64,000 nucleotides of DNA, taken from positions 23,825 to 87,824 of the forward strand of contig CAYZFQ010000011.1 of assembly GCA_964477895.1 (NCBI GenBank), read 5' to 3'. The position numbers and the translations under genes are program-made. A model generated the notes under the pieces. It had not been told where the DNA came from, did no database searches, and worked only from the letters and a program-made list of their open reading frames with translations. How positions within the stretch are numbered: the stretch's first letter is position 1; the number at the start of each line of letters is the position of its first letter. Shown here piece after piece: positions 17,146-46,086 of this stretch. Source of the DNA: an uncultured Bacteriovoracaceae bacterium (GTDB lineage Bacteria > Bdellovibrionota > UBA2428).

Positions 17146-17190
17146 TGGTACATATGTCTATTTTCCGGTACAATATAGACATATGTACCA
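17146..17190. promoter_or_regulatory. Perfect 16-bp inverted repeat (TGGTACATATGTCTAT n13 ATAGACATATGTACCA) overlapping the probable start codon of the AAA+ ATPase gene. A TTGACA sits just upstream (17139-17144) and a TACAAT lies in the loop (17169-17174).
   Basis: Read directly from the sequence. The arms are exact reverse complements. Confidence 0.45.
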
Positions 17191-30451: not shown

Positions 30452-32482
30452 GTGGAAAAAATTCTTCTTTTTCCACTCCGCGCTCGCTTTGAGGATTCAT
30501 TTTTAACTTCACTCTCTGCAGGCTCTCAAAGCTGGAGCTTTTTTAATCTATCCGAATGGATTCGCATCGCCATGGATTTGCCCAGGCCTCCACCCGAAGC
30601 CAAAGTCGCGGCCCTTTTGTTTTTGCAAAAAGAAAATCCTGAACTTTCCGTGAATGATTTGAATGAAGAGCTGGATATTTTTGCCGAGCTCCATAGCTTA
30701 GCCGTGCCCTTCACGACCTGGTCTCAAATTTTGACCGACTTTGAAAGTGGGGATGCCGAGCTTCACTTGTGGACCGCGAGGATCTTACGATACCTAAGCC
30801 TAGAGGCCCGCTTTCAAAGCAGAGCTGAGATTTTTTTCCCGGGGCATATTCTAGAAAGATTTTTGCAAAGCGAAGAGACCGAGAATCTTGGTCAGGGCAT
30901 TTTGCACCTTTCAACCCTCATGTCCCTTAGCCCCCTCGAAAGAAGGGTTGTGGAAAAAATCAGAAAGTCACGGCCGGTGGAAGAATTAGCGATTTGCCCC
31001 GACGAAGAGAGTTTCCCGGAAGACCTTTTCATATGGAATTCGGAAGCCAAGTTACCAGGCCTTCTCGAGCAGCGCCTGCGTTTTTCTGGGAGCAAAAAGC
31101 TACTTTTAAATCAGAAGCCTCAAATTAGAATTCCAGAAAAATGGCGGAACTTTAAAAGCTTTTTAGAAGCACAAGAAGATTTCCCCTTTACAAAGAGCTT
31201 TGAATTTTCGGGAGAGATCAAAGACTGGGTGAAAATATTTGTGGAGTTGAAAGTAAGAGAGGCTCAAAACCTGGAAGGCGCCACGGCCCTCCTCCTCCAA
31301 CCCATAGAGGCTGCCATGTTTCCATGGAGAAAGGCCCAGATCCTGCCTAGCCCCCTGCCTTTAAAAAATCGAGGGCAGATAGGCCCAAGACTTCCTGGCG
31401 GTATCCGTGGCCTTTTAGAATCCAACGGTCATCAACTCCCCCATCTGAGTCGGGAAGAAAAAAACCTTGAAGCCGCCCTTGATGATATTTCCAAAAGAGA
31501 ACTGAGTCTTTTCACCTCGCCCTCCAATACATCGGGCAGTATTGCGCGCTTAGACCTAGCCCCTCGCTTTAAGACTCAAGTCCTATTGCCCGAACAAATC
31601 TCTCCTTCGGGCCTGGAAGCCCTGAGTCGTTGCTCGGCGGCCTACCTTTTCTCCAATATAGAACGCCTAGATTTTTCTCAAGCCAACGAAGAACGCCTCG
31701 ATCCGCGTCTACTAGGATCCCTTGTGCACAAAGTCTTAGAGAAATTTCTGGGGACGCCAGATTTTAAATCTGTAAAAAGCCAAGTGGAAAAAATTTTTTC
31801 CGATGAAAAATCGAATTTTTTTAAGGATCTTTCTGCAATGGAGTCGGCATTCCTAGAGAGTCGAACTGAGATCTTGTGTGAAGAACTCTCTTTCCATATC
31901 GAAACCTTTGAAAAAGATCTCTTTGAGCTTTTTCCTGCACGAAAAATCGAGACCGAAAAAGTCCTGGCCGCACCTTTAAACAACATGCGTATCCGTGGCC
32001 GGGTGGACCGCCTCGATGAAATTCCTTCGGACGCTGCGCCGCCCTGGTACCTTCTCTTTGATTATAAAACCGGCAAGAACACAGGCAAGGCTTTGACTCA
32101 GGTAAAAAATGCCAAGTTTCAGTTCTTTATTTACCGCGAAATGCTAATTCAGCTGAAATCTCGAGTGGGTGCGGGCGGCTACCTCAATCCCCTAGATCCC
32201 GAGAAATCATCCCTTTTTATATTGGAAGATTTTCCTCAGTTAGAAAAACTTAAAGGGCTCTACTCTAGGCATGGACATAGCTGTGAGATACTCAGTGCTA
32301 GTCTACTTGAAGAAATCAAAGAAAAGCTCAGCTACTTTTTGGCTTCGGCTCAAGAAGTCTTTAACACCAAAACTTTCATAGCCGAACCTTTGACTAAATC
32401 TCAGTGCGGACTTTGCGACTATCGCTTTGTTTGCGGTCGTCCCCATTTTTTAAAAGAAGGCAGCACTGATGGCACGACGTGA
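30452..32482 (+). CDS. AddB/RexB-like subunit: divergent N-terminus, C-terminal PD-(D/E)XK nuclease with Fe-S cysteines.
   Basis: GRVDRLDEIP...LLFDYKTGK...QFFIY (D/DxK/QxxxY nuclease motifs). CGLCDYRFVCG (CxxCx5C) after an upstream Cys. No Walker A is visible. Confidence 0.5.
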   Translation: MEKILLFPLRARFEDSFLTSLSAGSQSWSFFNLSEWIRIAMDLPRPPPEAKVAALLFLQKENPELSVNDLNEELDIFAELHSLAVPFTTWSQILTDFESGDAELHLWTARILRYLSLEARFQSRAEIFFPGHILERFLQSEETENLGQGILHLSTLMSLSPLERRVVEKIRKSRPVEELAICPDEESFPEDLFIWNSEAKLPGLLEQRLRFSGSKKLLLNQKPQIRIPEKWRNFKSFLEAQEDFPFTKSFEFSGEIKDWVKIFVELKVREAQNLEGATALLLQPIEAAMFPWRKAQILPSPLPLKNRGQIGPRLPGGIRGLLESNGHQLPHLSREEKNLEAALDDISKRELSLFTSPSNTSGSIARLDLAPRFKTQVLLPEQISPSGLEALSRCSAAYLFSNIERLDFSQANEERLDPRLLGSLVHKVLEKFLGTPDFKSVKSQVEKIFSDEKSNFFKDLSAMESAFLESRTEILCEELSFHIETFEKDLFELFPARKIETEKVLAAPLNNMRIRGRVDRLDEIPSDAAPPWYLLFDYKTGKNTGKALTQVKNAKFQFFIYREMLIQLKSRVGAGGYLNPLDPEKSSLFILEDFPQLEKLKGLYSRHGHSCEILSASLLEEIKEKLSYFLASAQEVFNTKTFIAEPLTKSQCGLCDYRFVCGRPHFLKEGSTDGTT

Positions 32483-34775
32483 ATTAGTAGAGGCCGGTGC
32501 GGGCTGCGGAAAAACTGAATCCCTTGTTCGGCGCTATGCTTCGGCCTTGGGCTGGGATTTAGCTAGCGGAAATTCGCTTTATAAATCACAGCAATCCCTT
32601 CGACCCCGGCAAATTATAGCTCTGACCTTTACCGAGGAAGCGGCTCGCCAAATGCAAGAGCGCTTGACCCAGCGCTTAAAAGGCATCGGTCAAGAAAACC
32701 TGGCCAAGGACGTCGAAGAAGAAGGACAAATTTCCACCTTCCACGGACTTTGCCTGCGCCTGATTCGACCCCACTTGGTAAAACTTGGCTATAAGTCCCA
32801 CCAAGTTCTTCTTCCAAGTTTAGCTCGACTCCTTCGCCGCGAGCACATTATCAAAGCACTCTCTGAGCATCCCGAGAGAAAAGAGATCATCAAAGCCTTT
32901 AGCCCCGCCCAAATTGCCGACATGGGGGCGGACTTTTGGTTTGACCTCAAAGAGCTGGATGCCACTACCGTTAAAAGCTTTTACCTCCTGCAAAATCAGT
33001 CTTTCGCTCATTTCAGAAAAACGTGGCAAGAGTTTTTTGACCATCACCTCTCAGAGGATATTTTTCGGGAACTCAAAGAAGGAACTTGGGTGCAGGCCTT
33101 TCAGCATTTTTTAGAAGATCCTCGAGCCACAGGCCTTGAGTCCTGGAATTTTCGTGGGGCTAAAAAAGTTTCCGATTCTTACCCCCAACTTCAAAGGGCT
33201 GCAAAAAACTACCGAGACTTTCTACTCTCAGGCTATGCCCAGGCTCTCAGCGATGGCTCAGTGGAAGCCGAAATTCATTTATCTCAGGCGCTTATTCACT
33301 TTCTTAAGGACGCAGTAGCTTCTGGCCCCAAAATTCTCGATTTCACTGCCCTTGAAAAAGAACTTTCCGCCCTCATTGACCGTGGGGACTTTGAGCAAAA
33401 ACCTTGTGCCTTACTTATTGTGGATGAGTTCCAAGACACCAACCGAGCTCAGTTTAAAATTCTTCGCGCCCTCTCGGGCGAGCAAACAGATTGGTATTTT
33501 GTGGGCGATCCGAAGCAAAGTATCTACGGATTTCGTGGCGCCGATGTTTCACTCTTTTTAGAGCTGAGAGAGCAACTTGACCGAGTGGAACTCGATACCA
33601 ACTATCGATCTGAAGCCCCGGTCCTTAGTTTCACCAATGAAGCTCAAGAACTACTATTTCAAAGCCGCTTGGCAACGAGTTCACATGAAAAACACTACGA
33701 CCCACCTGCGCAGACGCTCAAAGTGGGACGCAAAGCTACAGGGGCAGAATCTGGGGTCAATGTTCAGACCTTTGCAAAAGACAATGACGGCGAAGCCGAG
33801 CTCGCCCTCTTGCACGATTTAGGCGAAAGCTTTAACGACGAAACGGCTTCCAGCCGCGCCCTGCTTTTTCTCAGCTGGCGCGAACTTTACCGCTACACTG
33901 AAATCCTGGATCAACATGAAGTCCGCTATGAAATCGCGGGCTCCCAGAATTTTCTACAGAGCCCCTTAACTGAAATTTTCGCTCATTTTTTAACAGATTT
34001 AGGAAATGAGAATAAAAACCAAGGGCTTTTTGAAATTTCGCGTTGGCGAAATATTCAAGGAGAAACCTCAGCCTTCCAGCTAAAAAAGGACTTTCAAAGC
34101 TTTGGCTTTAACCCCGAAAGCTTTGCTCATGATTCCCCCTTAGACCTTTTAGATAAATTCTCCACTCTAGTTAAAGCGGCAGACATGAAGGGCGGACCCG
34201 AGTGGACGGCCTCCATGGAGCGACTCCTCCTGGAACTCAGTGACCTAGACTTTGATCTCCATTTTAGCCCCGCGCGACTGGCTATTTTTCTTCAGCGAAA
34301 TATTCGAAAGCTTGAGGCCTCAGTCCCGTCCTTTAAAAATTCTGAGTCAGCAGGTACTCTTAGACTTTTAACTATCCATGGCTCCAAGGGCTTGGAATTT
34401 GACCATGTTTTTTTGCCGGAACTTTATGAGAGCCGCAGTCGCGCAAGTAGCGGCAGCCTGAGTGGGGAAGAGGGACTCAGCATCAAAGTCCCCGAGCCCT
34501 CACTTTTTTTTGAGGCCAAACGCCATGAAGAAAAAATTAAAAAAGAAGCAGAAATGCGAAGACTTTTTTATGTGGCCCTGACCCGGGCTAAGGCCAAAAT
34601 TTTTATTTACACAACTGAGATCTCTGACTCTAAGCGCAGTGAGAAAGCAAATCCTTTTGAGGTTCTGGGATGGCCCGAGCCTAGGATTACGCTTTGGAAT
34701 GAGCTTTTAGGTTGTTTAGGAAAGGCCGAAATCGAAATAGATCGGAATGGCGCCGAGGCCTCCAGTCCTGCTTAA
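32469..34775 (+). CDS. UvrD/AddA-like superfamily-1 helicase without a C-terminal nuclease domain.
   Basis: AGAGCGKT (Walker A), TFTEEAARQMQERL, LLIVDEFQDTN, TNYRSEAPVL, TIHGSKGLEFDHVFL, FYVALTRAKAKIF. 768 aa ending right after motif VI. 14-nt overlap with the upstream gene. Confidence 0.8.
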   Translation: MARRELVEAGAGCGKTESLVRRYASALGWDLASGNSLYKSQQSLRPRQIIALTFTEEAARQMQERLTQRLKGIGQENLAKDVEEEGQISTFHGLCLRLIRPHLVKLGYKSHQVLLPSLARLLRREHIIKALSEHPERKEIIKAFSPAQIADMGADFWFDLKELDATTVKSFYLLQNQSFAHFRKTWQEFFDHHLSEDIFRELKEGTWVQAFQHFLEDPRATGLESWNFRGAKKVSDSYPQLQRAAKNYRDFLLSGYAQALSDGSVEAEIHLSQALIHFLKDAVASGPKILDFTALEKELSALIDRGDFEQKPCALLIVDEFQDTNRAQFKILRALSGEQTDWYFVGDPKQSIYGFRGADVSLFLELREQLDRVELDTNYRSEAPVLSFTNEAQELLFQSRLATSSHEKHYDPPAQTLKVGRKATGAESGVNVQTFAKDNDGEAELALLHDLGESFNDETASSRALLFLSWRELYRYTEILDQHEVRYEIAGSQNFLQSPLTEIFAHFLTDLGNENKNQGLFEISRWRNIQGETSAFQLKKDFQSFGFNPESFAHDSPLDLLDKFSTLVKAADMKGGPEWTASMERLLLELSDLDFDLHFSPARLAIFLQRNIRKLEASVPSFKNSESAGTLRLLTIHGSKGLEFDHVFLPELYESRSRASSGSLSGEEGLSIKVPEPSLFFEAKRHEEKIKKEAEMRRLFYVALTRAKAKIFIYTTEISDSKRSEKANPFEVLGWPEPRITLWNELLGCLGKAEIEIDRNGAEASSPA

Positions 34776-34822
34776 GCCATATTTATTGACTCCTCCCAGC
34801 CCAAACCCTAGCTTTCCCTCGC

Positions 34823-36616
34823 TTGAAACTACATTTATTGGCTTTAGTATTTTCCCTTTTCACCTACTCCGGCCGAGCTCTAGCAATAACGATCCGAAAC
34901 ATTGCCGTGGTCACCCCCGTGTACCGCGAGCTAGAAAATCAAAATCTAGGCTACTTTCTTTTAGCCTACGCTGGGGAGACCAAACGCGCTCCAAACATTA
35001 ACCTTCACCTAGTCTTTGTGGTGAACGACCTTATAGGTACCGATCCGAGCATTCAGGCTGAAAACACAGCAACTCTTAACTTTTTAAAAGCTCTGTGTTT
35101 GAGAAAAACACCAAGTTTAGCGAAGGCTTCTGAGTTTTGGATGGAAGTGGCTACGGCTATTAAAGAATCGTCCATTCAGATTCATCTTTTAGACCAAAGA
35201 GGCCTCGACCTCGAGAAAGCCAACATTGGGCAGGTTCGAAAAGATGGCGGGGACCTTGCCCTTAGAATTTTTGAAGAATCTGAACTTCCCCATACATTAA
35301 TTGATTTAATGGATGCGGACTCCCTACCCGGAATAAACTCACTGAATATTTTAGCCCATGAGTTTAAAGACCCCAGCCTCGACTATAGCCTGGCACGACT
35401 CGAAAGCGTGCTTGACGCTTCCTCTCCTAGTCCTGTGAGCCGGCGCTTTATGGCTTATAAAGCGGGACTCCTCGCTATCGAATGGAATGCCTTTTTTAAA
35501 CACGAACTCCCCATAAGCGGAACTCCGCGGATCACAGTACGCGCGGATAAATACAAAGTCGTAGGAGGGGTGCCCCCCATCGTATATGCCGAAGACATGG
35601 CCCTTCTTAAAAATTTAGGAAGCGTCCATCTGCGTGGAAAGCACCTACCCCACCTTATCAATAAATCTCAACATCGGGGTCGACTTGATGGCTATGATGC
35701 CGCCTCAATTTTAAAGTCACAACATGAACCCGTTGAGCTATCGGATAATGCCCAGAAGAAACTACGAGAAATAAAAATATTTAAAGATGTTCTGACTCAT
35801 TATTCTGTTCAGTTGTCGGAAAAGTTTAAAAGCAATATTAGACTTTTCTCAGCCGAACACCTTTTAGATGTCGGCATGAGGCGGCGCCTGATTCTTGAAA
35901 GAATGAAAGATCCTGAGCTATCTGCTCATTGGAGTCATGATGCCTTTTTAAGAAATGCATGGCTTCCTAACTACCTCAGCGCTTGGCTCGATCAAGCCAA
36001 CCACGATGGGGACGAGGCCCTTCAAAACCTCAGCAGGCATCTGCCCGACCTCTTATCCCTAAAGCTCACCGAGATATCCCAAGCCACGATATCCTTTCAA
36101 GCAGCGATCGAAACGTGGAACAAAAATAACTTTGATATTGAAGACCTCGCACCTTTTGCAAATGCCCAAGCACTTGAAGAGGCCTTGGTCCAAGATGTCT
36201 TTGAAAGTTTTTTCGAAGCAGAAATACTTCAGATTTCTTCAAGAAAAGATAAATGGAATCGCCTTGATGATTTGGCAACTCGTATTCGAGTTTTAGAGTG
36301 GATCGGTCAGCGCTATGAGCTTGAGAGGGTAAATAAGATTTTTTGGGCTATCACTTTGTTTTATTCTGCCCCTCAGGCAAAGGGGTCAAGTTCTCGGATG
36401 AAAGAGCTCAATAACAAGTACCAAAGGGCCTACGATTTTCTCCTAGACTCGATAAGAAAACATGAGAAACGAGAGGCCGAGTCCCTTATACCCTCCTCAT
36501 TTTCATCAACAGCCTTCCGAGCGAAGCTGAAAACACGGCGGGAGGACCGATTGGCGTATTTTAAACACTATGAAGTGATTCACAGAATCTCTAAGTGTGC
36601 ACGGGAGTTGCCTTAG
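34823..36616 (+). CDS. Secreted hypothetical protein (597 aa).
   Basis: Signal peptide MKLHLLALVFSLFTYSGRALA. No recognisable motifs. Confidence 0.45.
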   Translation: MKLHLLALVFSLFTYSGRALAITIRNIAVVTPVYRELENQNLGYFLLAYAGETKRAPNINLHLVFVVNDLIGTDPSIQAENTATLNFLKALCLRKTPSLAKASEFWMEVATAIKESSIQIHLLDQRGLDLEKANIGQVRKDGGDLALRIFEESELPHTLIDLMDADSLPGINSLNILAHEFKDPSLDYSLARLESVLDASSPSPVSRRFMAYKAGLLAIEWNAFFKHELPISGTPRITVRADKYKVVGGVPPIVYAEDMALLKNLGSVHLRGKHLPHLINKSQHRGRLDGYDAASILKSQHEPVELSDNAQKKLREIKIFKDVLTHYSVQLSEKFKSNIRLFSAEHLLDVGMRRRLILERMKDPELSAHWSHDAFLRNAWLPNYLSAWLDQANHDGDEALQNLSRHLPDLLSLKLTEISQATISFQAAIETWNKNNFDIEDLAPFANAQALEEALVQDVFESFFEAEILQISSRKDKWNRLDDLATRIRVLEWIGQRYELERVNKIFWAITLFYSAPQAKGSSSRMKELNNKYQRAYDFLLDSIRKHEKREAESLIPSSFSSTAFRAKLKTRREDRLAYFKHYEVIHRISKCARELP

Positions 36617-36699
36617 GAGATTCTTCTGTCCCGTATCAAAAAAATCCAAAGTCAATTTCATGACTCCCTCTCGCCAACGGCCCATCATATAATATACCC

Positions 36700-37071
36700 A
36701 TGAGATATTTTTTAGTGATAGCCTTTAGCCTCTTAGCATTTTCCATTGATGCCAAAGACAAATCGCCCAAAGCCACTAGGGCGCCTGCAGCCATCTCTAA
36801 CGAACAAAAAGTACAAATGCTTGGGGAACTTTTACTCCCCACGCTTGAAGGCCAATATATTTGTTATGCCGACTGTTTACTGAATGGGGCCTATCAACAG
36901 CTAAGGATCGTTGGTAAATCCAAAAAATCTCTTTATGAGAGCATGAAAAAAATGTGCCCCAATGGCTTAGAGCATGACGTCGGTCCAGGCATGTTTAAGG
37001 TTCAATCCGCAGACGAGGTTTGCAAAGATGCTCAGTGGTACCTCAATACATTTGTACTTGATAAAAGGTAA
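36700..37071 (+). CDS. Small secreted cysteine-containing hypothetical protein.
   Basis: Signal peptide MRYFLVIAFSLLAFSIDA. Confidence 0.4.
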   Translation: MRYFLVIAFSLLAFSIDAKDKSPKATRAPAAISNEQKVQMLGELLLPTLEGQYICYADCLLNGAYQQLRIVGKSKKSLYESMKKMCPNGLEHDVGPGMFKVQSADEVCKDAQWYLNTFVLDKR

Positions 37072-37077
37072 GCTTGG

Positions 37078-37482
37078 TCACTTCGCAGTGGAAGGTAGCC
37101 CAATTCTAGCCAACTGAGGAATTTGATCAAAGTCCGAATCCCGGTCAAAGAGAACGAGGTTATGTTGTAAAACCAGTGCCGCAATCCAAAGGTCATTGGT
37201 GGGAATGGGCTTTCCTTTTTTGCGCAAATAAGAATAAAGATCTGCATAAAAAAAAGTTGTTTGATCATCGGGAGACAATACAAAGACTCCTTCATTGTTA
37301 AGGAACTTTGTAAGAGTTCTTTCGTTTTTTTCCCGATTGGCCCCGTGAGCAAAGCCAGCTCTTTGCTCAGCGACAACAATCAGGGGAATAAAAATTTCCA
37401 TCGCATTCTCTACGACTTCTACGACTGAAGATAGGCCTCTGCAAAAGTCCGTGTAACTGTTGGAATCGATGGCAAGTCTCAT
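37078..37482 (-). CDS. vapC: PIN-domain toxin (VapC-like).
   Basis: MRLAIDSNSY... shows the PIN acidic-residue pattern. The ATG overlaps the antitoxin stop (ATGA). Confidence 0.7.
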   Translation of the reverse strand: MRLAIDSNSYTDFCRGLSSVVEVVENAMEIFIPLIVVAEQRAGFAHGANREKNERTLTKFLNNEGVFVLSPDDQTTFFYADLYSYLRKKGKPIPTNDLWIAALVLQHNLVLFDRDSDFDQIPQLARIGLPSTAK

Positions 37483-37739
37483 GACTTCCAAAGATCTTCA
37501 TCGATCTGGCGTTGAAGGGTAATTTCTTCCTCGATACGAAGAGCCTCTTTTTCGGTTAACGAACCCACGACTTCGCTAAAATCTCTTTTAGGCCGAAGAG
37601 TCTCACCCGCCCCAGCGCTTAAGGCTTCCAAGGCAACTTGATTAAAGCTTTTACCAGCCAATTTGGCCCTTCTTTTCAAAGCTCGATCCACGGGGTCGGG
37701 GATATTGCGAATGGTGTATTGTCTTGCAGGCTTTGACAT
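37479..37739 (-). CDS. vapB: VapB/FitA-like antitoxin (ribbon-helix-helix family).
   Basis: MSKPARQYTIRNIPDPVDRALKRRAKLAGKSFNQVALEAL. I prefer the ATG at 37739 over the upstream TTG-initiated extension. Confidence 0.65.
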   Translation of the reverse strand: MSKPARQYTIRNIPDPVDRALKRRAKLAGKSFNQVALEALSAGAGETLRPKRDFSEVVGSLTEKEALRIEEEITLQRQIDEDLWKS

Positions 37740-37775
37740 GTATACATTGTATACGAAGTATGTATACAAAGTCAA
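37739..37775. promoter_or_regulatory. vapBC promoter/operator with three GTATAC palindromes.
   Basis: The minus strand reads TTGACT-n16-TATACA-n8-ATG. (T)GTATAC(A) occurs at 37739-37746, 37748-37755 and 37761-37768. Confidence 0.45.
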
Positions 37776-37854
37776 GGGACTGGATTATCGGGTTTTTCAA
37801 GGGAAACGAACGCAACTTTTGACGCGCCGTAAGCGTCGGACTACTCCAGATGTC

Positions 37855-38355
37855 ATGTCCATTTTGAACCGGATTTCGTCAGTTTTTCAAAAGAATGAGA
37901 CCGTCTTAAAGTCTCCCCTAAAAGGCACAGTCGTGCCGCTTGCCCAAGTTCCCGATGAGACTTTCGCGAGCAAGATACTCGGCGACGGCGTCGCAATCGA
38001 TCCCCTTGAGGGCATCCTGCTGTCGCCCGTGGACGGCGAAGTCGTGCAGGTGTTCCGCACGAACCACGCTGTGGGCCTTTTGAGCGCCTCGGGACTGGAA
38101 ATCTTGCTTCACGTGGGCATCGACACCGTGAAAATGAACGGCGAGGGCTTTCGAGCGCTCGTCAAGCCGGGTCAAAAAGTCAAAGCCGGCGATCGACTGC
38201 TGGAGTTCGACTTGGGCCTTGTGAAAGCCAAAGCAAAATCGGCCATCACGCCTATGGTTGTCACAAACATGGAGGTCGTGAAAAATCTCGAAAATCGCGC
38301 CACGGGCGCCATCGAAGCTGGCCAAGAACTCCTTCGCGTCGAAACGAAGGCCTAA
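37855..38355 (+). CDS. crr: PTS glucose-family EIIA component.
   Basis: VVPLAQVPDETFASKILGDGVAIDP...GLEILLHVGIDTVKMNGEGF is the classic EIIA-Glc sequence. I prefer the internal ATG at 37855 (166 aa). Confidence 0.85.
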   Translation: MSILNRISSVFQKNETVLKSPLKGTVVPLAQVPDETFASKILGDGVAIDPLEGILLSPVDGEVVQVFRTNHAVGLLSASGLEILLHVGIDTVKMNGEGFRALVKPGQKVKAGDRLLEFDLGLVKAKAKSAITPMVVTNMEVVKNLENRATGAIEAGQELLRVETKA

Positions 38356-38383
38356 ACCGGAAACTTAAGGAACGAGAGCAAAC

Positions 38384-38644
38384 ATGGAAAAGACTGTTCG
38401 AATCCTGAATGAAGAGGGCTTTCATGCCCGACCGGCCGGGGTCTTCGTGAAAAAAGCCACGGCTTTCGCCTCGGCCATTGAGGTCCGGCATAACGGCGCC
38501 TCGAAAAACGGCAAGTCGATCATGGCCCTCATGAGCCTCGGCCTCGCTAAGGATTCCGAAATCACCATCGCAGCCCAAGGCCCCGACGCCGACGCCGCCG
38601 TCACAGCCCTCGTCGACCTCGTGAATCGCAAGTTTCAAAACTGA
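38384..38644 (+). CDS. ptsH: Phosphocarrier protein HPr.
   Basis: GFHARPAG (His-15 region). 86 aa. Confidence 0.9.
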   Translation: MEKTVRILNEEGFHARPAGVFVKKATAFASAIEVRHNGASKNGKSIMALMSLGLAKDSEITIAAQGPDADAAVTALVDLVNRKFQN

Positions 38645-40383
38645 TGATTCTCGTCGGCAAAAGCGCTTCGAGCGGCATCGTCGTGGGTCGGGCCCTGCTC
38701 CTAAAGCAGGAAGCCCTTGTCGTCGAGGAAACCCGCGTCGACAACACGGACGTCGAAATCGCCAGATTCCGTCGCTCCATCGAGAAGTCCAAAACGGATC
38801 TCGGGACTGTGCGTGAGAACGCGCTTGCCACGATGGGGGCCGACAAAGCCGCTATTTTTGACGCTCACTTGCTCGTACTCGAGGATCCCGAGCTCATCGA
38901 CGAGACGGAGCGGATCATCCGCGACGACAAACTCAACGCCTCAGCAGCGTTTCGAAAAGTCTCCCAGAACTTCATCGTGATCTTTGACGCCATGGAAAAC
39001 GAATATATGCGCGAGCGGGCCGCGGACATCCGCGACATCTCGGACCGTGTGCTGCGGAACCTGGCCGGGCACAACGTCATGGACCTTTCAACTCTGACCG
39101 ACGAGCATATTGTCGTGTGCCACGATCTGACACCTTCCGAGACGGCCACGCTCAATCCCCAAAAGGTTCTGGGAATCTTGGCGGACATCGGAGGCAAAAC
39201 TGGGCACACCGCCATTATGGCCCGGACGCTCGAGATTCCGGCCGTCCTCGGCCTTCGCAAGATCACGCAGCTTGTGCGGAACGGCGACTGGATCGCCTTC
39301 AACGGCGAAACGGGCGAAGTTGTGATCAACCCCGACGAGAAAACGCGGGAAATGCACCTGCAGGCCCGCGCTCGAGAGCTTCAGGACAAAATCGAGCTAC
39401 AAAAGCTGATCGGGCTTCCAAATCAAACGCTCGACGGCCACACCGTGGGCCTCCTTGGGAACATCGGCAGCATTCAGGACCTCGGTGTCTTAAAAAAATA
39501 CGACGCTCGAGGCGTAGGCCTGTATCGCACCGAGTTCTTGTTCATGGATCACGCCCAGATGCCCACCGAACAGGAACAGTTCGTGGCTTATAAAGCCGTA
39601 CTCGAAGCCTTGCCGAGTCTTCCTGTGACGATTCGCACGCTCGACATCGGCGGAGACAAAGCCGTGCCGTATCTCGACATGGGCAAGGAAGAAAACCCGT
39701 TTCTGGGCTACCGCGCGATCCGCTACTGCCTGGAGCACCCAGAGGTGTTTCGTCCCCAGCTTCGCGCCCTGCTGCGAGCGAGCGTCTACGGCAACCTTCG
39801 CATCATGTTCCCGATGATCTCATCGCTCGACGAACTTCTGGCCGCCAAAGAGGCCGTGGCCTCGGTCCGCGCCGAGCTCGTGACGGAGGGCGTGTCCGTG
39901 GCCAACGATCTGCCACTAGGCGTGATGATCGAGATCCCTTCGGCGGCGATCATCTCAGACGTCCTTGCCCAGCATTGCGAGTTCATGAGCATCGGCACGA
40001 ACGACCTCATTCAATATGTTGTCGCCGTCGATCGCCAAAACGAACGCGTGCAGAACCTTTATGATCCTTTCCATCCGGGCGTGCTACGCCTGATCGCCAC
40101 GGTCATCGAAAACGGCCATAAATACGGCCGAAAAGTCAGCATGTGCGGCGAGATGGGCGGCAGCGAGCTGCACTTGCCGCTCTTGCTTGGACTCGGTCTA
40201 GACGAATTCAGCATGGCGCCGACCTACGTTCTTCGGGCCCGTCGGCAGTTGCGCCAATGGACAATCATCGAGGCCCGAAAACTCTCTCAAGACGTCCTGA
40301 AACGATCCCGCTCCGCCGAGATCGAAGCCCTCCTCACAGAAGCCCGCAATCAAAACGCTAAAGCAAAGAGGTCCTCACTATGA
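38644..40383 (+). CDS. ptsI: PTS Enzyme I (phosphoenolpyruvate-protein phosphotransferase).
   Basis: MILVGKSASSGIVVGRALLL. GGKTGHTAIMARTLEIPAV (active-site His). PEP-utilising domain. Confidence 0.9.
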   Translation: MILVGKSASSGIVVGRALLLKQEALVVEETRVDNTDVEIARFRRSIEKSKTDLGTVRENALATMGADKAAIFDAHLLVLEDPELIDETERIIRDDKLNASAAFRKVSQNFIVIFDAMENEYMRERAADIRDISDRVLRNLAGHNVMDLSTLTDEHIVVCHDLTPSETATLNPQKVLGILADIGGKTGHTAIMARTLEIPAVLGLRKITQLVRNGDWIAFNGETGEVVINPDEKTREMHLQARARELQDKIELQKLIGLPNQTLDGHTVGLLGNIGSIQDLGVLKKYDARGVGLYRTEFLFMDHAQMPTEQEQFVAYKAVLEALPSLPVTIRTLDIGGDKAVPYLDMGKEENPFLGYRAIRYCLEHPEVFRPQLRALLRASVYGNLRIMFPMISSLDELLAAKEAVASVRAELVTEGVSVANDLPLGVMIEIPSAAIISDVLAQHCEFMSIGTNDLIQYVVAVDRQNERVQNLYDPFHPGVLRLIATVIENGHKYGRKVSMCGEMGGSELHLPLLLGLGLDEFSMAPTYVLRARRQLRQWTIIEARKLSQDVLKRSRSAEIEALLTEARNQNAKAKRSSL

Positions 40384-41915
40384 AAATATTCTCCACACTT
40401 CAGAAGCTAGGCAAATCCCTTATGCTCCCGGTCTCAGTCTTGCCCGTGGCCGGTATTCTCCTGGGCGTCGGCGGGGGCTTCCTTGCGAGCGCCGACAAAA
40501 CGGGTCTCACGCTAAGCCCCACTGTTCGCACCGTGCTCGAGATCATGCAGAATTCGGGTGGCTCGATTTTCGGCGCCCTCGCGCTGTTGTTTGCGATCGG
40601 CGTAGCGCTTGGTTTCACTGACGACGACGGCGTCGCAGGCTTGGCGGGTGTCGTGGGCTTCGTTGTGCTTCAAGGCACGCTCGGCACGCTCGCAAAAGCT
40701 TTCAACGTGACGACCACCAAGGTCCTAGGCATCGACTCCATCAACACCGGCGTCGCGGGCGGCATCATCGCCGGCCTCATTGCGGCTTACATGTTCAACC
40801 GTTTTTACCGAATCAAACTTCCCTCTTATCTAGGCTTTTTCGCGGGCAAGCGCTTCGTGCCGATCGCCACGGCGTTTGCCTCGATCCTGGCTGGCGCAGT
40901 GCTCATCGTTATTTGGCCTCCCATCGGCCGGGGCATCGACGCCTTCTCTCAATGGGCCTCGAAGGAAAATCTGCTTTTGGCCACGGGCCTGTACGGGATC
41001 GTCGAGCGCTCTCTCATTCCACTCGGCCTGCATCATATCTGGAACGTGCCCTTCTTCTTTGAAATGGGTCAGTACTATCAACCTCTGCAGCCCGGCGTGG
41101 ACTGCGCCGTAGAAGCCGCTCGCACGAACGCCGAGATGTGCAAGCTCGTCACGGGCGAGATCCCGCGCTTCTTCGCGGCCGACCCGACGGCCGGCAATCT
41201 GGCCGGGGGCTTCCTTTTCAAGATGTTCGGCCTTCCGGCTGCGGCCATCGCCATGTGGCATTGCGCGCGTCCCGAAAAGCGCGCCGTCATCGGGAGTCTC
41301 ATGATCTCGGCCGCTTTCACGAGCTTTTTGACCGGCATCACGGAGCCCATTGAGTTCTCGTTCCTCTTCGTGGCCCCAATTCTTTATGTCTTCCACGCGC
41401 TCTTAGCCGGAGGCGCGTTCGTCCTCACGAACCTCGTCGACGCCAAGCTGGGCTTTGCTTTTTCGCATGGCGCGATCGACTACGTCTTACATCACTTCGT
41501 GAGCGGCCTCGGCCGCAACCAGCTCTTGATCATTCCCCTGGGCCTTGCTTACGCAGCCGTGTATTACACGGTCTTCCGTGTAGCCATCACCAAATTGAAT
41601 CTCATGACCCCTGGACGCGAGGCCGATGATGTCTCGAAACCCGCGGCCTCAAAGTTGATGGCAGGACAAGGCGAATTGGCTGCCGAGCTTATCGCGGCCT
41701 TCGGAGGCAGTGCGAACATCGCGAGCCTTGATGCCTGCATCACACGCTTGCGCATTGAGGTGAAAGAGATCGAGCGCGTGGACCAGGCCCGAATCAAGGC
41801 CCTCGGCGCGGCAGGCGTATTCGTGAGCGGCAACGGGATTCAAGCTGTCTTCGGAACTCGCTCGGACAACCTCCGCTCCGACATGGCCGAACTCATAAAA
41901 AAATCAGCGCTATGA
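40380..41915 (+). CDS. PTS glucose/GlcNAc-family EIICB permease.
   Basis: Polytopic EIIC followed by an EIIB domain with LDACITRLRIEV (phospho-Cys). ATGA overlap with ptsI. Confidence 0.85.
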   Translation: MKIFSTLQKLGKSLMLPVSVLPVAGILLGVGGGFLASADKTGLTLSPTVRTVLEIMQNSGGSIFGALALLFAIGVALGFTDDDGVAGLAGVVGFVVLQGTLGTLAKAFNVTTTKVLGIDSINTGVAGGIIAGLIAAYMFNRFYRIKLPSYLGFFAGKRFVPIATAFASILAGAVLIVIWPPIGRGIDAFSQWASKENLLLATGLYGIVERSLIPLGLHHIWNVPFFFEMGQYYQPLQPGVDCAVEAARTNAEMCKLVTGEIPRFFAADPTAGNLAGGFLFKMFGLPAAAIAMWHCARPEKRAVIGSLMISAAFTSFLTGITEPIEFSFLFVAPILYVFHALLAGGAFVLTNLVDAKLGFAFSHGAIDYVLHHFVSGLGRNQLLIIPLGLAYAAVYYTVFRVAITKLNLMTPGREADDVSKPAASKLMAGQGELAAELIAAFGGSANIASLDACITRLRIEVKEIERVDQARIKALGAAGVFVSGNGIQAVFGTRSDNLRSDMAELIKKSAL

Positions 41916-43312
41916 ACCACGTCTTTCCACCTGGCTTCGTCTGGGGATCTGCTACGGCCGCCATCCAAGTCGAGGGCGCCGCTCGAGAAGACGGTAAAGG
42001 ACCCTCGAATTGGGACGTCTTTTGCCGCGAGCATCCGGAACGGATTTACGATCGCGGAAGTCCCGAGGTGGCTTGCGATCATTACCACCGCTTCCGCGAA
42101 GACGTCGGTCTGATGAAAGAAATGGGACACACGGGCTATCGCATGTCGATCGCCTGGACCCGCATTTTTCCCACGGGCGAGGGCCCTCTCAATACCGAAG
42201 GCGTCCGCTTTTACCGCGAGCTTTTCGCCGAGTTGCTCGCGCAGGGCATCGAGCCGAACGTCACGCTTTATCATTGGGATTTACCCCAGGCTCTAGCCGA
42301 GCGCGGCGGTTGGGAGAACAAAAGCACCATCCAGGCCTTCGAAAAATACGCCCGCACCTGCTTTGAACTTTTTGGCGACCAAGTCCGCCTCTGGTCCACA
42401 CTGAATGAGCCTGGGTGGACGACTCTCCAAAGCTACGTGACCGGCCTCCACCCCCCCTGCAAAACGGATCAGCGCGCAGCCATACAAGTTGCGCATAATT
42501 TTTTGGTGGCTCATGCTCGGTCCGTTGCGGCCTTTCGCGAGTCCGGGTGCCCTGGGCTGATCGGGCTCGTGCTCAACATGTCCACCGTTTATCCCGCCAG
42601 CCAAGATTCAGCCGACGCAGATGCCGCACGCATCGCCGACGGCATTCTGAATCGCTGGTTTATCGATCCGGCGCTGAAAGGCTGTTATCCCGACGACATA
42701 TGGCAACTCTATAAATCCTGCGGGCTCTTGCCCGAGCATACACCCGAGGAGCTTGAGCTCTTCGGGCGCCACACGATCGACTTCATTGGCGTCAACTATT
42801 ACTACCCCCACTTCGCGAGCGCCGACGCCCAAGAATCCGCGTATCATCTGAACACCTCGGGGGATAAAAACGAGGACTGCAAATTCTCGATCCGCGGCCT
42901 TTTTCGCTTCGTGAAGAATCCAAACGGACGCTTCACGGATTGGGGCTGGGAGATTTATCCCGACGGCCTCTATGATTTACTGATGCGGGCCCACGAGTAC
43001 CGACCCGGCATTCCTGTTTACATCACCGAGAACGGAATCGGACAGCATGAGTCGCTCGACCAGAACGGCGAGCTCAACGACGATGGACGCATCGAGTTCG
43101 TTCGCGAACATCTCAAGGTGGCCCACCGTGCGTGGCGCGACGGCGTGAATCTGAAGGGCTATTACATGTGGGCGCTCATGGATAATTTTTCGTGGGTCAA
43201 CGGTTTCAAAAAGCGTTACGGATTTTTGTTTGTGGACCGCGTGACACTCGATCGAACAATCAAGGCAAGTGGCCGCTGGTATCGCCAGGTCTCCGAGGCG
43301 AACGGGTTTTAG
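41912..43312 (+). CDS. Glycoside hydrolase family 1 (beta-glucosidase / 6-phospho-beta-glucosidase).
   Basis: FVWGSATAAIQVEGA, TLNEPG and ITENGIG (the two catalytic Glu regions). ATGA overlap with the EIICB gene. Confidence 0.85.
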   Translation: MNHVFPPGFVWGSATAAIQVEGAAREDGKGPSNWDVFCREHPERIYDRGSPEVACDHYHRFREDVGLMKEMGHTGYRMSIAWTRIFPTGEGPLNTEGVRFYRELFAELLAQGIEPNVTLYHWDLPQALAERGGWENKSTIQAFEKYARTCFELFGDQVRLWSTLNEPGWTTLQSYVTGLHPPCKTDQRAAIQVAHNFLVAHARSVAAFRESGCPGLIGLVLNMSTVYPASQDSADADAARIADGILNRWFIDPALKGCYPDDIWQLYKSCGLLPEHTPEELELFGRHTIDFIGVNYYYPHFASADAQESAYHLNTSGDKNEDCKFSIRGLFRFVKNPNGRFTDWGWEIYPDGLYDLLMRAHEYRPGIPVYITENGIGQHESLDQNGELNDDGRIEFVREHLKVAHRAWRDGVNLKGYYMWALMDNFSWVNGFKKRYGFLFVDRVTLDRTIKASGRWYRQVSEANGF

Positions 43313-43755
43313 AGTTAAGTCACGATGTTGCGAATGGCGGAGAATGGGCCCCGAAAGCTAGTAAACACATCAGAGATCTAATCTTTTAATCTTTAAACTT
43401 GCATCCCTAATCGCGAAGTTTTCCGCGCAGGCCGACGCCTACCCAACAAACACGGAAAGCCAATATGTATTTATTTATATATTGGGCATCTAGGAGCTCA
43501 TATGAGAGGCCAGTTTTTTTGGCGGCGGAAATATTTGAAAAAGTCGACCTCTCTAATGAGCGTATAACCCCGCGATATATAAAAATTTGCATATTGGGTT
43601 TTTCGCGAATTTCGCGACCTATAAAAAGGGCTACACAAGTCTCTACATCGGAAGATTTCTTTAATTTCTTGGGTCAGTAAATTGACGGCGACGGGTGGGC
43701 ACCTTTGCTCCGTTTCCGGGAACTTTACGGATCAGAGCTCAGCCCAAATTTAAGA

Positions 43756-44115
43756 CTATCGAAATGCACGGCTAGATATTTGGATAGAGTTTTTCTCAGG
43801 ATCCTTAGCATTTGAGAAAGCGTAACCATCAGACTGATGGATCGAGCCAAAACGAAGTCCAGACTTGAGGCTCTTGGCGCAAAACTTTTCGACGTCTTTT
43901 ACGCTGAAAACTAGCTTAACAGATACTTGTCCAGGTTTTACGGCTTTTCCAGCTGGATGAATTAATAGGCTAAAACCACTCGATCTTTGGATGAGCTCAA
44001 CAATTCCATCGATTTGATTAGTATCTTCCGCGAAACCGAAGTGAGTTTTGTAAAACTCGGCCATCCGATTGACGTTCTTTGCATACATAACGATTCTGTT
44101 AAGTACTGCATCCAT
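43756..44115 (-). CDS. VOC/glyoxalase-family protein.
   Basis: MDAVLNRIVMYAKNVNRMAEFYKTHFGF... is about 120 aa taken from the internal ATG. The longer ORF extends to 44250. Confidence 0.6.
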   Translation of the reverse strand: MDAVLNRIVMYAKNVNRMAEFYKTHFGFAEDTNQIDGIVELIQRSSGFSLLIHPAGKAVKPGQVSVKLVFSVKDVEKFCAKSLKSGLRFGSIHQSDGYAFSNAKDPEKNSIQISSRAFR

Positions 44116-44227
44116 ATAAATATTTGTAACACGCCCAAAGCTGCGCTTCAAAATACAAATGCCTAAATCGTAGCCCCTGCATCGATTAATCCGAGCTTTA
44201 CCGTGCAGCATAGTACCCACACCGCCC

Positions 44228-44950
44228 TCAAAACAATCGCGAACCCTCAAAGTTCCACCGCAGCTTCATCACACCTATCAAAGCTTCCTTAACAATAGAC
44301 CCACTCATCTTAGAAGCCCCCGCCCGACGCTCTTGAAAAATAATCGGCGTCTCCACCAATTTCTTCCCAAGCACCAAAGCCCGGTACTTCATTTCAATCT
44401 GAAAAGCATAGCCCTTGGACTGAATGCTTTCTAAGTGCAATCCGCGAAGTAAATCCGCACGCCATCCGTTAAAGCCACCTGTCCAGTCGTGCAGCGGGTA
44501 CCTCAGCCACAACCTCGAATAAATCGAACCCATTCGCGACAAAAGGAGCCTTCCTTGCGACCAGTTAGACACTCCCCCGCCCTCTATATACCGACTGCCG
44601 CAAACCGCATCGGCACCTTTGCGAAACTCAGCAAAAAAAGCTGGCAGGTGAGCGGCGTCATGCGAAAAATCCGCGTCCATTTCAAAAATAATATCGTAGT
44701 TTTTATCTAGGCCCCACTTAAAGGCATGCAGATAAGCCGTAGCTAATCCTAACTTCCCCGAGCGGTGCTGCACAAAAACCCGGGGGTTTTTGGCAGCTAA
44801 GTCATCTAAAATTTTACCGGTTCCATCGGGACTGCCGTCATCGACAAAAAGAATATCGGTGCCGGCTTCCACAAAAGAAAAAATCCGCTCCGCCAAAGGC
44901 AATACGTTGTCTTTCTCGTTATAGGTAGGAATGCAAAGAAGTGCGCGCAA
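44228..44950 (-). CDS. Family 2 glycosyltransferase, polyprenol-phosphate mannosyl/glucosyltransferase-like (Dpm1-like).
   Basis: LCIPTYNEKDNV...FVDDGSPDGT...EMDADFSHD (DxD region). Confidence 0.8.
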   Translation of the reverse strand: MRALLCIPTYNEKDNVLPLAERIFSFVEAGTDILFVDDGSPDGTGKILDDLAAKNPRVFVQHRSGKLGLATAYLHAFKWGLDKNYDIIFEMDADFSHDAAHLPAFFAEFRKGADAVCGSRYIEGGGVSNWSQGRLLLSRMGSIYSRLWLRYPLHDWTGGFNGWRADLLRGLHLESIQSKGYAFQIEMKYRALVLGKKLVETPIIFQERRAGASKMSGSIVKEALIGVMKLRWNFEGSRLF

Positions 44951-44976
44951 GATGAGTCTACTTTAGCTGATAATTT

Positions 44977-46086
44977 TTAGCCGAGCACTTCTTTGAGGGG
45001 AGTATAGGGAAGATTTAAATCCGAGGCCACTTGTTCGTAGACACAGTGCCCATCCCAACAATTTACTCCTAGCGCCATCGCAGGATCCTTGCGCAGAGAA
45101 CCCACAGGGTCGGCTGCAAGTTTTAGAGCATAAGGCAGGGTGTGGTTTGTGAGTGCCAATGTTGAGGTGCGGGCCACAGCGCCTGGCATATTCGTTACGC
45201 AATAGTGAATCACGTTTTCTTCTATATACGTCGGCTTCTCGTGGGAGGTGGGCTTTGATGTTTCAAAGCAGCCACCCTGATCGATGGCAATGTCTACCAC
45301 TACCGAACCTGGGTTCATGCGTTTAATCATTTCCCGAGTCACAAGCTTCGGGGCTTTGGCTCCAGGAATAAGCACACTTCCAATGACGAGGTCGGACCTC
45401 GCCACACATTCTTCGATGTTCACCTGGTTGCTCATGAGTGTAGAGGCACTGGTACCAAAAATATCGTCCAAATATTCTAAGCGACGCTGATCTCGCTCCA
45501 GAATAATCACTTCGGCTCCAAGCCCCACGGCAATTTTTGCCGCATTGGTCCCGGAAACTCCGCCTCCCACAATGGTAACAACACCTTTGGCCACTCCGGG
45601 CACTCCACCTAAGAGGACACCTCGGCCCCCATTACGTTTTTCCAAAAGGTTTGCACCTATCTGCGGGGCCATGCGGCCTGCCACTTCCGACATGGGTCGA
45701 AGCAAAGGCAAAGTGCGGTCGGGGAGCTGAACGGTTTCATAAGCCACCGCGCGGACTTTTCTTTCCATAAGGGCCTTGGCCAATTTGGGTTCGCTGGCCA
45801 AGTGAAGGTAGGTGAATAAAAAGAGACCCGGGCGCATATGATTATATTCGCTCTCAATCGGCTCTTTTACCTTAATGACCAAATCAGCAGCCCAGGCGTC
45901 TTGGGCCTTGGAAACAATCTGGGCCCCACAGCTTTTGTATTGGTCATCGGTGATCCCAGAGCCTAAGCCGGCGCCTGTTTCAACCAAAACCTTATGGCCT
46001 GCGCCCACTAAGGCCTTGACGCCAGCCATAACGATGGCCACTCTGTTCTCAAGATTTTTTATTTCTTTTGGAATTCCGACTATCAT
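44977..46086 (-). CDS. ald: Alanine dehydrogenase.
   Basis: [18 protein letters not shown]. Rossmann [28 protein letters not shown]. 369 aa from the internal ATG. Confidence 0.85.

Follow-up and report, generated by a model that had tools for sequence, protein, structure and literature searches.

An operon for a sugar phosphotransferase system (PTS) was studied in a 64,000-nucleotide stretch of an uncultured Bacteriovoracaceae bacterium (NCBI GenBank assembly GCA_964477895.1, contig CAYZFQ010000011.1, positions 23,825 to 87,824 of the forward strand; this whole stretch is termed the window). The five genes, crr-ptsH-ptsI-EIICB-GH1, encode a PTS phosphoryl relay, a membrane permease and a glycosidase of glycoside hydrolase family 1 (GH1). 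The operon was probably inserted laterally into a variable slot, between an addA-like gene and a GT2-ald gene pair, of a Bdellovibrionota genome of ~ 48.5% GC, and the donor probably lay within the same phylum.

Composition of the cassette

The block at 37776–43312 is compositionally foreign. Its GC content is 0.579, compared with 0.485 for the remainder of the window, and a two-change-point likelihood fit placed the GC borders at 37924 and 43145 (0.586 versus 0.485; log-likelihood gain 98). When the whole window was scanned, the best GC segment was this same one. The richest of the non-overlapping 5.5-kb intervals reached a GC content of 0.509 (mean 0.485, standard deviation 0.012), and the block lies 7.8 standard deviations out. 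The source of the shift is the third codon position: GC content at third positions (GC3) was 0.671 in crr, 0.713 in ptsH, 0.728 in ptsI, 0.736 in EIICB and 0.685 in GH1, an overall range of 0.67–0.74, as against 0.497 ± 0.048 (maximum 0.589) in the 50 other open reading frames (ORFs) of the window, giving z values of 3.6–5.0 for the five genes. The genes for ribosomal protein S1 and NADH dehydrogenase, also in the window, have GC3 values no higher than 0.589. The tetranucleotide distance from the window background peaked on the cassette. A codon-usage likelihood score did not tell the cassette apart, the usage of the host being nearly flat.

A first-pass annotation of this DNA had described a sharp shift in composition and codon usage over the five genes. 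The GC, GC3 and tetranucleotide scans agree on such a shift: GC is not uniform along the window and the cassette stands out. The figures were revised, the proposed contrast of ~ 60% with ~ 49% GC becoming 58% with a background of 48.5%. Similarly, the cassette was found where it had been placed, at 37776–43760, except that the right end of that interval takes in a noncoding spacer.

The insertion slot

The host is assigned to the Bdellovibrionota by its predicted alanine dehydrogenase (Ald) and by synteny. The best named relatives of Ald were found in metagenome-assembled genomes (MAGs) labelled 'Bdellovibrionales' or 'Bdellovibrionota', at 72–78% identity, and syntenic relatives were identified in contigs L082–L084 (Ald 83%) and L085/L086 (Ald 77–78%), the last being the 'Bdellovibrionales' MAG GCA_018266335.1. 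The window and these relatives have in common the backbone order TonB-like protein, conserved hypothetical protein, AddB-like nuclease, AddA-like helicase, slot, GT2 glycosyltransferase and Ald, with a response regulator, a secretin and a type II secretion system ATPase (T2SSE) further along. The GT2 and Ald proteins are 62–66% and 77–83% identical to their counterparts.

In the relatives the slot is occupied by one small variable gene of ~ 1 kb, which is Trypsin_2-like or YkuD, depending on the lineage. The slot in the window covers 34776–44227 (9,452 bp) and holds an orphan ORF, a 123-residue ORF, vapCB, the cassette, a spacer and a glyoxalase-like ORF. The inserted region is thus larger than the cassette and composite. 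Its parts on either side of the cassette have 43–45% GC, slightly under the background, and these low-GC parts together with the high-GC cassette make the slot a mosaic. The synteny comparison, which had been proposed in the first-pass annotation, therefore supports an insertion at this site, and the foreign composition taken with the single-gene slot of the relatives makes lateral acquisition the best reading.

The contig is derived from a metagenome and its GC content changes abruptly at gene borders, as it would if a GC-rich fragment of another organism had been joined to it during assembly or binning. Against such a chimera, Logan single-run contigs from two sequencing runs, 100% identical to the window, tile positions 33923–45187. 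The four independent contigs (Table 1) cross both junctions, and at the right side L001, which runs to 43570, overlaps L129, which begins at 43477. A chimeric join has a negligible probability in our estimation; the cassette is not an assembly artefact.

Relatives of the operon

A scan for EIICB with one genome per species recovered seven Bdellovibrionota/Bacteriovoracaceae MAGs at 70–75% identity. After a drop, the next tier lay at 54–58% and consisted of the PtsG proteins of Tolumonas, Aeromonas, Endozoicomonas, Enterobacterales and Chromobacterium. The five-gene operon was found contiguous and in the same order in L003 (labelled Bdellovibrionota) and in L123–L125 (unlabelled JGI and SRA contigs), and with an insert before GH1 in L002 (labelled Bacteriovoracaceae) and L087 (an unlabelled JGI metagenome contig). 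In these five-gene contigs, EIIA was 53–70% identical to its counterpart in the window, HPr 79–82%, Enzyme I (EI) 65–69%, EIICB 72–76% and GH1 75–76%. A metagenome scan for EI returned nothing between the 65–69% of the cassette contigs and 45% or less, and the identity of GH1 outside the clade was at most 64%.

The EIICB-GH1 pair alone was present in L004–L008 and L122, whose hosts have 38–46% GC. Overall, adjacent EIICB and GH1 genes occur in at least nine distinct contig lineages with hosts of 38–65% GC, and among 80 species-level EIICB loci this adjacency was found in this clade only. Inspection of the neighbouring genes in L002, L003, L005, L007, L008, L122, L123 and L126 showed a different genomic context in each cassette-bearing contig and provided no clues to the substrate. 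In two high-GC lineages GH1 is split from EIICB by inserted genes (L002:11641–18739 and L087:13252–15084), the L002 insert comprising a GNAT protein, a glucose/sorbosone dehydrogenase-like protein, a LytTR two-component pair and a solute-binding protein. Insertions, it follows, also target the operon itself.

In most other contigs the GC content of the operon was close to that of its surroundings: 64 versus 65% in L002, a uniform 61% in L087 and a uniform 46% in L122. In L123 the operon likewise matched the local GC; there, with called genes, cassette GC3 was 0.86–0.89 and that of the neighbours 0.77–0.91. The L003 operon had a GC content of 0.584 with 0.545 locally, and the loci in L003, L005 and L007 were ~ 4–5 GC points over their flanks. 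Expressed as an offset from the flanks, GC3 had a z value of 3.8 for the window copy and of between −0.6 and 1.9 for those in the other contigs; note that for the high-GC loci these offsets were computed with mechanical ORFs, which inflates the flank variance, and that L123 was redone with called genes. The window copy grouped with the high-GC five-gene lineages (58–65% GC) when EIICB and GH1 trees were built by neighbour joining, and these lineages were about equally far from each other.

Origin of the cassette

The closest relatives of all five proteins thus lie in the phylum of the host, an outcome that the first-pass annotation had named as counting against horizontal acquisition. At the level of the phylum this is indeed what was found. 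However, the operon is native in composition in those relatives, and so it is the donor that has to be changed while the inference of transfer is kept. The earlier proposal of a horizontally acquired cassette therefore holds for the lateral event, on the grounds of composition and of the slot, and does not hold for a distant sugar-using donor. The donor would have been another Bdellovibrionota lineage of ~ 58–61% GC in which the operon was compositionally native, and, to judge from the retained high GC3, the transfer would have been too recent for the block to have taken on the composition of the host. Both the direction of transfer and the identity of the donor are what we infer from these comparisons. 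Taken together, the data suggest that the module has long been established in the Bdellovibrionota and moves between lineages.

The syntenic relatives are distant (helicase 36–40%) and have 56–58% GC (L082, L085 and L086) and a GC3 of 0.645. Set beside the 48.5% GC of the host, this suggests that the host lineage has lowered its GC content genome-wide. The GC content of the cassette resembles that of these relatives.

It could be, as an improbable alternative, that the operon was inherited vertically, having been ancestral and then lost in the relatives, with its GC3 maintained by codon selection acting on conserved or highly expressed genes while the genome drifted from ~ 57 to 48.5% GC. The same-phylum best matches of all five proteins would be expected on that account, the GC and GC3 of the syntenic relatives are near the cassette values, and the EIICB-GH1 genes of L005 and L007 are somewhat GC3-richer than their neighbours. 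Yet the slot contains one unrelated small gene in two lineages of relatives, the context differs from one cassette-bearing contig to the next, and no other gene in the window exceeds a GC3 of 0.589, including those for ribosomal protein S1 and NADH dehydrogenase. A genome-wide drift would not skip five adjacent genes and end exactly at their borders. Direct transfer from a distant sugar user, for instance among the Gammaproteobacteria or Betaproteobacteria, was implicit in the first-pass annotation and is very improbable: compared with the Bdellovibrionota copies, the PtsG proteins of these groups are more distant by 15–20 points of identity, EI reaches no more than 35–38% identity, an adjacent GH1 and the two EIICB insertions described below are lacking, and so, in L010, L016 and L041, is the Q219F exchange. 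This is so even though the nearest EIICB proteins outside the clade are gamma- and betaproteobacterial PtsGs (54–58%) and the order crr-ptsH-ptsI-EIICB occurs in Chromobacterium, Aquitalea and Xenophilus. A distant gamma- or betaproteobacterial source may instead be the deep origin of the module, as distinct from the event in the window. The order EIIA-HPr-EI-EIICB was seen in L011, L029, L033, L037, L039, L049 and L051 (at ~ 7.3–11.5 kb in each locus), which derive from Chromobacterium, Aquitalea, Xenophilus and a Methylomirabilota MAG, with EI at 35–38% identity. This recurrence may reflect a deeper ancestry of the gene order.

Several observations weigh against a recent lateral transfer within the phylum. 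Genes for an integrase or a transposase, a tRNA target and flanking repeats were all looked for and not found, so that nothing indicates how the block moved; the absence of an integrase, already remarked upon in the first-pass annotation, extends to the island and to the large ORFs of the window. A search for direct and inverted repeats around the island gave short chance-level matches only, none of them flanking the block, and a plasmid search gave only partial matches of ~ 65–67% on chromids and no vector with a similar cassette. The closest candidate donor found shows only ~ 70–80% protein identity, so that it is composition that speaks for a recent date. The cassette contigs share no marker genes, and the cassette tree hence stands without a species tree for comparison. 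Finally, in the low-GC hosts of L005 and L007 the EIICB-GH1 genes lie 8–9 GC3 points over their neighbours, and the offset could be partly intrinsic.

The PTS components

The gene content proposed at first pass was confirmed with Pfam and NCBIfam profiles (Table 1), and all five genes are intact. The stand-alone EIIA-Glc keeps its two active-site histidines (TNHAVGL and LLHVGIDTV). The predicted start of crr is the ATG at 37855, giving 166 residues. The NCBI record and one Logan contig have a longer call of 214 residues from 37711, whereas another Logan contig has the 166-residue call; the longer form overlaps the opposite-strand vapB and has an extra N terminus without homology, and the homologues have 167–170 residues, which the shorter form fits. 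HPr has the GFHARPAG (His-14) and KSIM (Ser-45) motifs, and an AAGGA ribosome-binding site lies upstream of ptsH. In Enzyme I the domains PF05524, PF00391 and PF02896 were all found, together with the phospho-histidine motif GHTAIMAR and the sequence CGEMGG. The ATGA overlaps that had been said to chain ptsI, EIICB and GH1 were both verified, and the start of ptsI additionally overlaps the stop of ptsH by 1 nt.

A scan of the region for promoters and terminators yielded no more than the shuffled expectation. No sigma-70-like site was found directly upstream of crr on the plus strand, the sole plus-strand match (38258–38286) being within crr. Rfam searches at gathering and E-value thresholds identified no leader or riboswitch, the sole match in the window being a tRNA at 18342–18425, and Pfam identified no regulator gene within the cassette.

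The EIICB permease

EIICB is predicted to be a permease of the glucose, PtsG type and not of the β-glucoside, BglF type. It scored 635.4 bits against TIGR02002 (cutoff 591.8) and 645.2 bits against NF008301 (cutoff 647), and it matched the E. coli IICB-Glc structures with 540 bits. The β-glucoside enzyme II models TIGR01995 and PRK09824 matched the EIIB stretch only, with 22–33 bits against cutoffs of 615–894 (TIGR01995: 33 bits, cutoff 614.7). The glucose-coordinating residues of E. coli IIC-Glc were taken from published structures (PMC11393339). All of them, namely E202, R203, H211, H212, N215, K257, G295, T297, E298, F337 and S338, are kept in the window protein and in its clade, and the EIIB phospho-cysteine C421 of E. 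coli is also conserved in the window protein (LDACITRLR).

The architecture of the gate and loops departs from that of E. coli PtsG. Of the three residues of the periplasmic gate (H212, Q219 and F337), Q219 is replaced by Phe in every Bdellovibrionota copy and also in L011, while the gammaproteobacterial PtsGs examined retain Gln. Every Bdellovibrionota copy also has, after HP1b, an insertion of 17 residues that includes two conserved cysteines; neither L011 nor any gammaproteobacterial PtsG examined has it. A second insertion of ~ 11 residues, after transmembrane helix 1, is likewise present in every Bdellovibrionota copy, and L011 has a similar one. Judging from the alignment and the published topology, both insertions would be in periplasmic loops.

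The GH1 glycosidase

The GH1 protein has the catalytic motifs TLNEP at residue 163 and ITENG at residue 371, and no signal peptide is visible in its N terminus. In the 6-phospho-β-glycosidases of the family the phosphate is bound by Ser, Lys and Tyr (LacG 428/435/437; LpPbg1 432/438/440), and in the non-phospho enzymes an invariant 'phosphomimetic' Glu (NFEW ... RFG) discriminates against phosphorylated substrates (PMC3605045, section 3.7). The window segment DNFSWVNGFKKRYG, in an ungapped alignment to LacG 417–443, has Ser, Lys and Tyr at LacG positions 428, 435 and 437. The position of the 'phosphomimetic' Glu is occupied by Ser (DNFSW), and the aligned non-phospho structures carry Glu and Phe in the pocket. 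All Bdellovibrionota copies, and all of the 120 closest homologues as well, share the Ser/Lys/Tyr pocket without variation. The L8a loop has the length of that in LacG, rather than being one residue longer, and the Ser is followed by Trp and not by Ala. Loop length and Trp correspond to the architecture of LacG and of the Fusobacterium mortiferum-type enzyme and not to that of BglA, and for this reason gluco- and galacto-specificity are not to be read from the sequence.

Homologues in cassette-type contigs showed 71–76% identity, followed by Plesiomonas and Azospirillum (64%), Corallincola (62%), Riflebacteria (59–61%) and Elusimicrobia (57–58%), a gradient smoother than that of EI. The 120 closest matches (P0129–P0247 and L131:6989–8389), whose hosts are these five groups and Bdellovibrionota, all have the phosphate-type pocket DNFSW.NG..KRYG. 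Naming within the subfamily is inconsistent, with 'GH1 family beta-glucosidase' used by NCBI/PGAP and mostly '6-phospho-beta-glucosidase' by JGI. Spread over several phyla, the subfamily is apparently uncharacterised.

A possible β-glucoside pathway

The first-pass annotation had read the cassette as a complete sugar PTS plus a phospho-β-glucosidase. The PTS relay stands; the GH1 pocket is of the phospho type, but the cutoffs of the phospho hidden Markov models were not reached. In the pathway proposed here, phosphoryl groups would pass from phosphoenolpyruvate to the His of Enzyme I (GHTAIMAR), His-14 of HPr, the His of EIIA-Glc (LLHVG) and the Cys of EIIB (LDACITRLR). The non-reducing glucose of a β-glucoside would sit in the conserved EIIC site and be phosphorylated on O6 during transport, and the cytoplasmic GH1 would then cut the 6-phospho-β-glucoside, releasing glucose-6-phosphate together with the aglycone, possibly another glucose. 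On balance we favour such import and cleavage of a β-glucoside-6-phosphate, with some reserve, as what the five proteins would accomplish. That the substrate is a β-glucoside and not free glucose, and that GH1 is specific for phosphorylated substrates, are deductions from the residues and gene order set out above.

Some of the data do not sit easily with this pathway. EIICB passes the glucose-specific TIGR02002 and keeps every glucose-binding residue, and it may carry free glucose only. GH1 passes TIGR03356 (BGL, non-phospho; 496.8 bits, cutoff 478.5) and fails the phospho-enzyme models on which it was scored (PRK13511, LacG, PRK09852, PRK09593 and PRK09589), with 454.7 bits against 610, 412.8 against 561 and 254–282 against 623–639. 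A homologue in Azospirillum thermophilum (64% identity, same pocket) has no PTS gene nearby. The best short-motif match was a pyruvylated-galactosidase, which is another enzyme binding an anionic C6 substituent, so the anionic group need not be phosphate.

It is possible, though we think it clearly less probable, that the same acquisition brought a plain glucose PTS together with an ordinary non-phospho cytoplasmic β-glucosidase, or a GH1 acting on an unrelated C6-anionic glycoside. TIGR02002 and TIGR03356 are indeed the sole specific models whose cutoffs were passed, and the overall top PDB matches of GH1 are non-phospho β-glucosidases (429–482 bits, with Gan1D at 379 and LacG at 345); the intact glucose site, the Azospirillum homologue without a PTS link and the pyruvylated-galactosidase motif point the same way. 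What speaks for the phospho-pathway is that the discriminating Glu (PMC3605045) is Ser here, accompanied by the Lys and Tyr ligands, in 120 of the 120 closest homologues, and that EIICB and GH1 are translationally coupled and remain adjacent in at least nine lineages. A cytoplasmic β-glucosidase would, moreover, require a disaccharide importer, and the cassette encodes none.

A further, speculative reading, which we think unlikely, is that the PtsG-derived EIICB and the coupled Ser/Lys/Tyr GH1 might form a Bdellovibrionota-specific module of new specificity that imports a β-linked glucoside. The features on which one might tentatively build it are the Q219F gate, the disulfide-capable 17-residue insertion and the second loop insertion, all of which lie over a glucose site that has not changed. 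The imported compound might then, equally tentatively, be a fragment of the cellobiose, laminaribiose, gentiobiose or sophorose type, for which glucans of the prey envelope or periplasm are a possible source.

Neighbouring genes and other features

The features of the slot and its anchors are listed in Table 1.

Table 1. Features of the inserted region, its backbone anchors and the independent contigs covering it (window coordinates).
Feature	Position	Strand	Evidence and remarks
AddA-like UvrD helicase, left backbone anchor	32469–34775	+	PF00580/PF13361; 36–40% identity to the same-position gene in L082–L086
Orphan ORF, 569–597 residues (569 from 34907)	34823–36616	+	No Pfam or PADLOC match; absent from syntenic relatives
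Small ORF, 123 residues, hydrophobic N terminus	36700–37071	+	No Pfam or PADLOC match; called in independent contig L127
vapC-like PIN toxin	37078–37491	−	PF01850, 37 bits; 13-nt overlap with vapB; GC 0.430
vapB-like ribbon-helix-helix (RHH) antitoxin, divergent from crr	37479–37739	−	PF22513, FitA-like RHH, 32.1 bits; ATG 37737–37739
Three GTATAC palindromes in 28 bp	37740–37767		Directly upstream of vapB ATG
crr, stand-alone EIIA-Glc, 166 residues	37855–38355	+	PF00358, 172 bits; TIGR00830, 155.5 bits (cutoff 97.5)
ptsH, HPr, 86 residues	38384–38644	+	PF00381, 98.9 bits; TIGR01003, 89.8 bits (cutoff 47.9)
ptsI, Enzyme I, 579 residues	38644–40383	+	TIGR01417, 681.8 bits (cutoff 341.7)
PtsG-type EIICB (predicted), 511 residues	40380–41915	+	TIGR02002, 635.4 bits (cutoff 591.8); ATGA overlap with ptsI
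GH1 glycosidase, 466 residues	41912–43312	+	PF00232, 554.6 bits; ATGA overlap with EIICB
AT-rich spacer, 443 bp, between convergent GH1 and glyoxalase-like genes	43313–43755		GC 0.433
Glyoxalase/VOC-like ORF, 151–164 residues	43756–44250	−	PF00903, 23.8 bits; GC 0.428; absent from syntenic relatives
GT2 glycosyltransferase and alanine dehydrogenase, right backbone anchor	44228–46086	−	PF00535; PF01262/PF05222
Contig L127	33923–42582		
Contig L128	37157–40594		
Contig L001	40586–43570		
Contig L129	43477–45187		

A search of 5.8 billion proteins with the orphan ORF matched only itself; an independent run nonetheless yielded the same assembly of the ORF and called it as a gene. PADLOC gave no match to the non-PTS genes of the islet. 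On the left of the cassette, the vapBC pair that had been named at first pass was recognised as a PIN toxin gene overlapped by a small RHH antitoxin gene. A minus-strand promoter-like site, TTGACT-18-TACAAT (37775–37746), overlaps the GTATAC palindromes. Three of the five GTATAC sites in the window lie upstream of vapB, the other two being paired at 56010 and 56026, and the cluster is probably an autoregulatory operator for VapB.

The AT-rich spacer on the right, put at ~ 440 bp in the first-pass annotation, agrees closely with the measured length. It is covered by the independent contigs L001 and L129. No similarity was found between it and the DNA 3′ of the cassette in other loci, the blastn alignments ending at the GH1 stop codon; Rfam gave no match in the spacer, and the scan listed no terminator-like or promoter-like site there.

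Elsewhere in the window, an ORF of 568 residues at 18921–20627 has NuoB-like (Oxidored_q6) and NuoD-like (Complex1_49kDa) domains, which suggests a fused NADH dehydrogenase subunit, and a NuoG-like gene follows at 20647–22443. The tRNA, which is the only one in the window and lies on the minus strand, shares bases with a DUF4143/AAA_14 ATPase ORF (17057–18349) at the 3′ end of that ORF, and no integrase was found nearby.

Comparison with known systems

Each of the proteins belongs to a well-known family, and as a genomic event the insertion is of an ordinary kind, an islet that lacks an integrase and occupies a variable slot. All four families of the E. coli glucose PTS (PtsI, HPr, Crr and PtsG) are represented, with the same domain order in EIICB and with EIIA as a separate protein in both. 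In E. coli the genes are organised as ptsHI-crr, with ptsG unlinked. Here, by contrast, they form one operon, crr-ptsH-ptsI-EIICB, and GH1 is translationally coupled to the transporter. EIICB is 55–58% identical to enterobacterial PtsG and is set apart from it by Q219F and the insertions of 17 and ~ 11 residues.

The E. coli bglGFB and ascFB operons and the B. subtilis bglPH operon are alike in that the gene for a PTS permease precedes one for a GH1 enzyme that cleaves the phosphorylated import product. They differ from the window operon in that its permease is not of the BglF subfamily, no BglG/LicT antiterminator gene or RNA element was found, its GH1 is not of the BglA/BglB/AscB type (254–282 bits, cutoffs 623–639), and it brings its own EI, HPr and EIIA. 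The Ser/Lys/Tyr positions, the Trp after Ser and the short L8a loop are shared with LacG, Gan1D and the F. mortiferum-type GH1; nevertheless, the window protein is overall nearer to the non-phospho β-glucosidases and scores below the cutoffs of the LacG and PRK13511 models. The F. mortiferum enzyme has a LacG-like architecture and yet is a 6-phospho-β-glucosidase (PMC3605045).

Beta- and gammaproteobacterial GlcNAc/glucose PTS loci, such as those of Chromobacterium and Aquitalea, have the four functions in the same order, immediately upstream of a Glc-family EIICB. The arrangement of EIIA-HPr-EI plus EIICB in such loci is of the NagF-NagE type. The window genes differ in being separate, in the identity of EI (35–38%) and EIIA (40–47%) and in the GH1 gene, which those loci lack. 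With integrase-less genomic islets the window has in common a compositional anomaly, a synteny break, an adjacent toxin–antitoxin pair and orphan genes. As a particular feature, its islet combines one part of high GC with two of lower GC, and no mobility gene, tRNA target or direct repeats were found. Four features set the operon apart from the bgl, asc and bglPH operons: the PtsG-subfamily permease with altered loops, the GH1 of an apparently uncharacterised Ser/Lys/Tyr subfamily, the inclusion of the general PTS proteins and the lack of an antiterminator-type regulator.

Implications

Bdellovibrio bacteriovorus has been reported to have no PTS, and carbohydrate use was hence considered unlikely (PMC11271337, PMC2405797). 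In the literature searched, nothing was found on a sugar PTS in Bdellovibrionota. The first-pass annotation had regarded the cassette as an unexpected capability for a predatory, non-saccharolytic host. This view is not upheld: the EIICB-GH1 pair recurs in the phylum, and the description of the host was an assumption, the phylum including lineages with more carbohydrate genes.

A complete sugar PTS with a glycosidase in at least nine Bdellovibrionota-type lineages is a modest addition to the literature, and the known workings of PTS systems and of genomic islets are unchanged by it. For annotation, the point is that the name 'beta-glucosidase' is being given to an entire GH1 subfamily whose pocket is of the phosphate type. 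Were the module indeed of new specificity, it would be one that moves among the lineages of a phylum whose model predator reportedly lacks a PTS. The findings indicate that in parts of the Bdellovibrionota the ability to take up sugars is accessory and can be exchanged, and this has a bearing on how strictly uncultured members of the phylum depend on a predatory diet of proteins and nucleotides.

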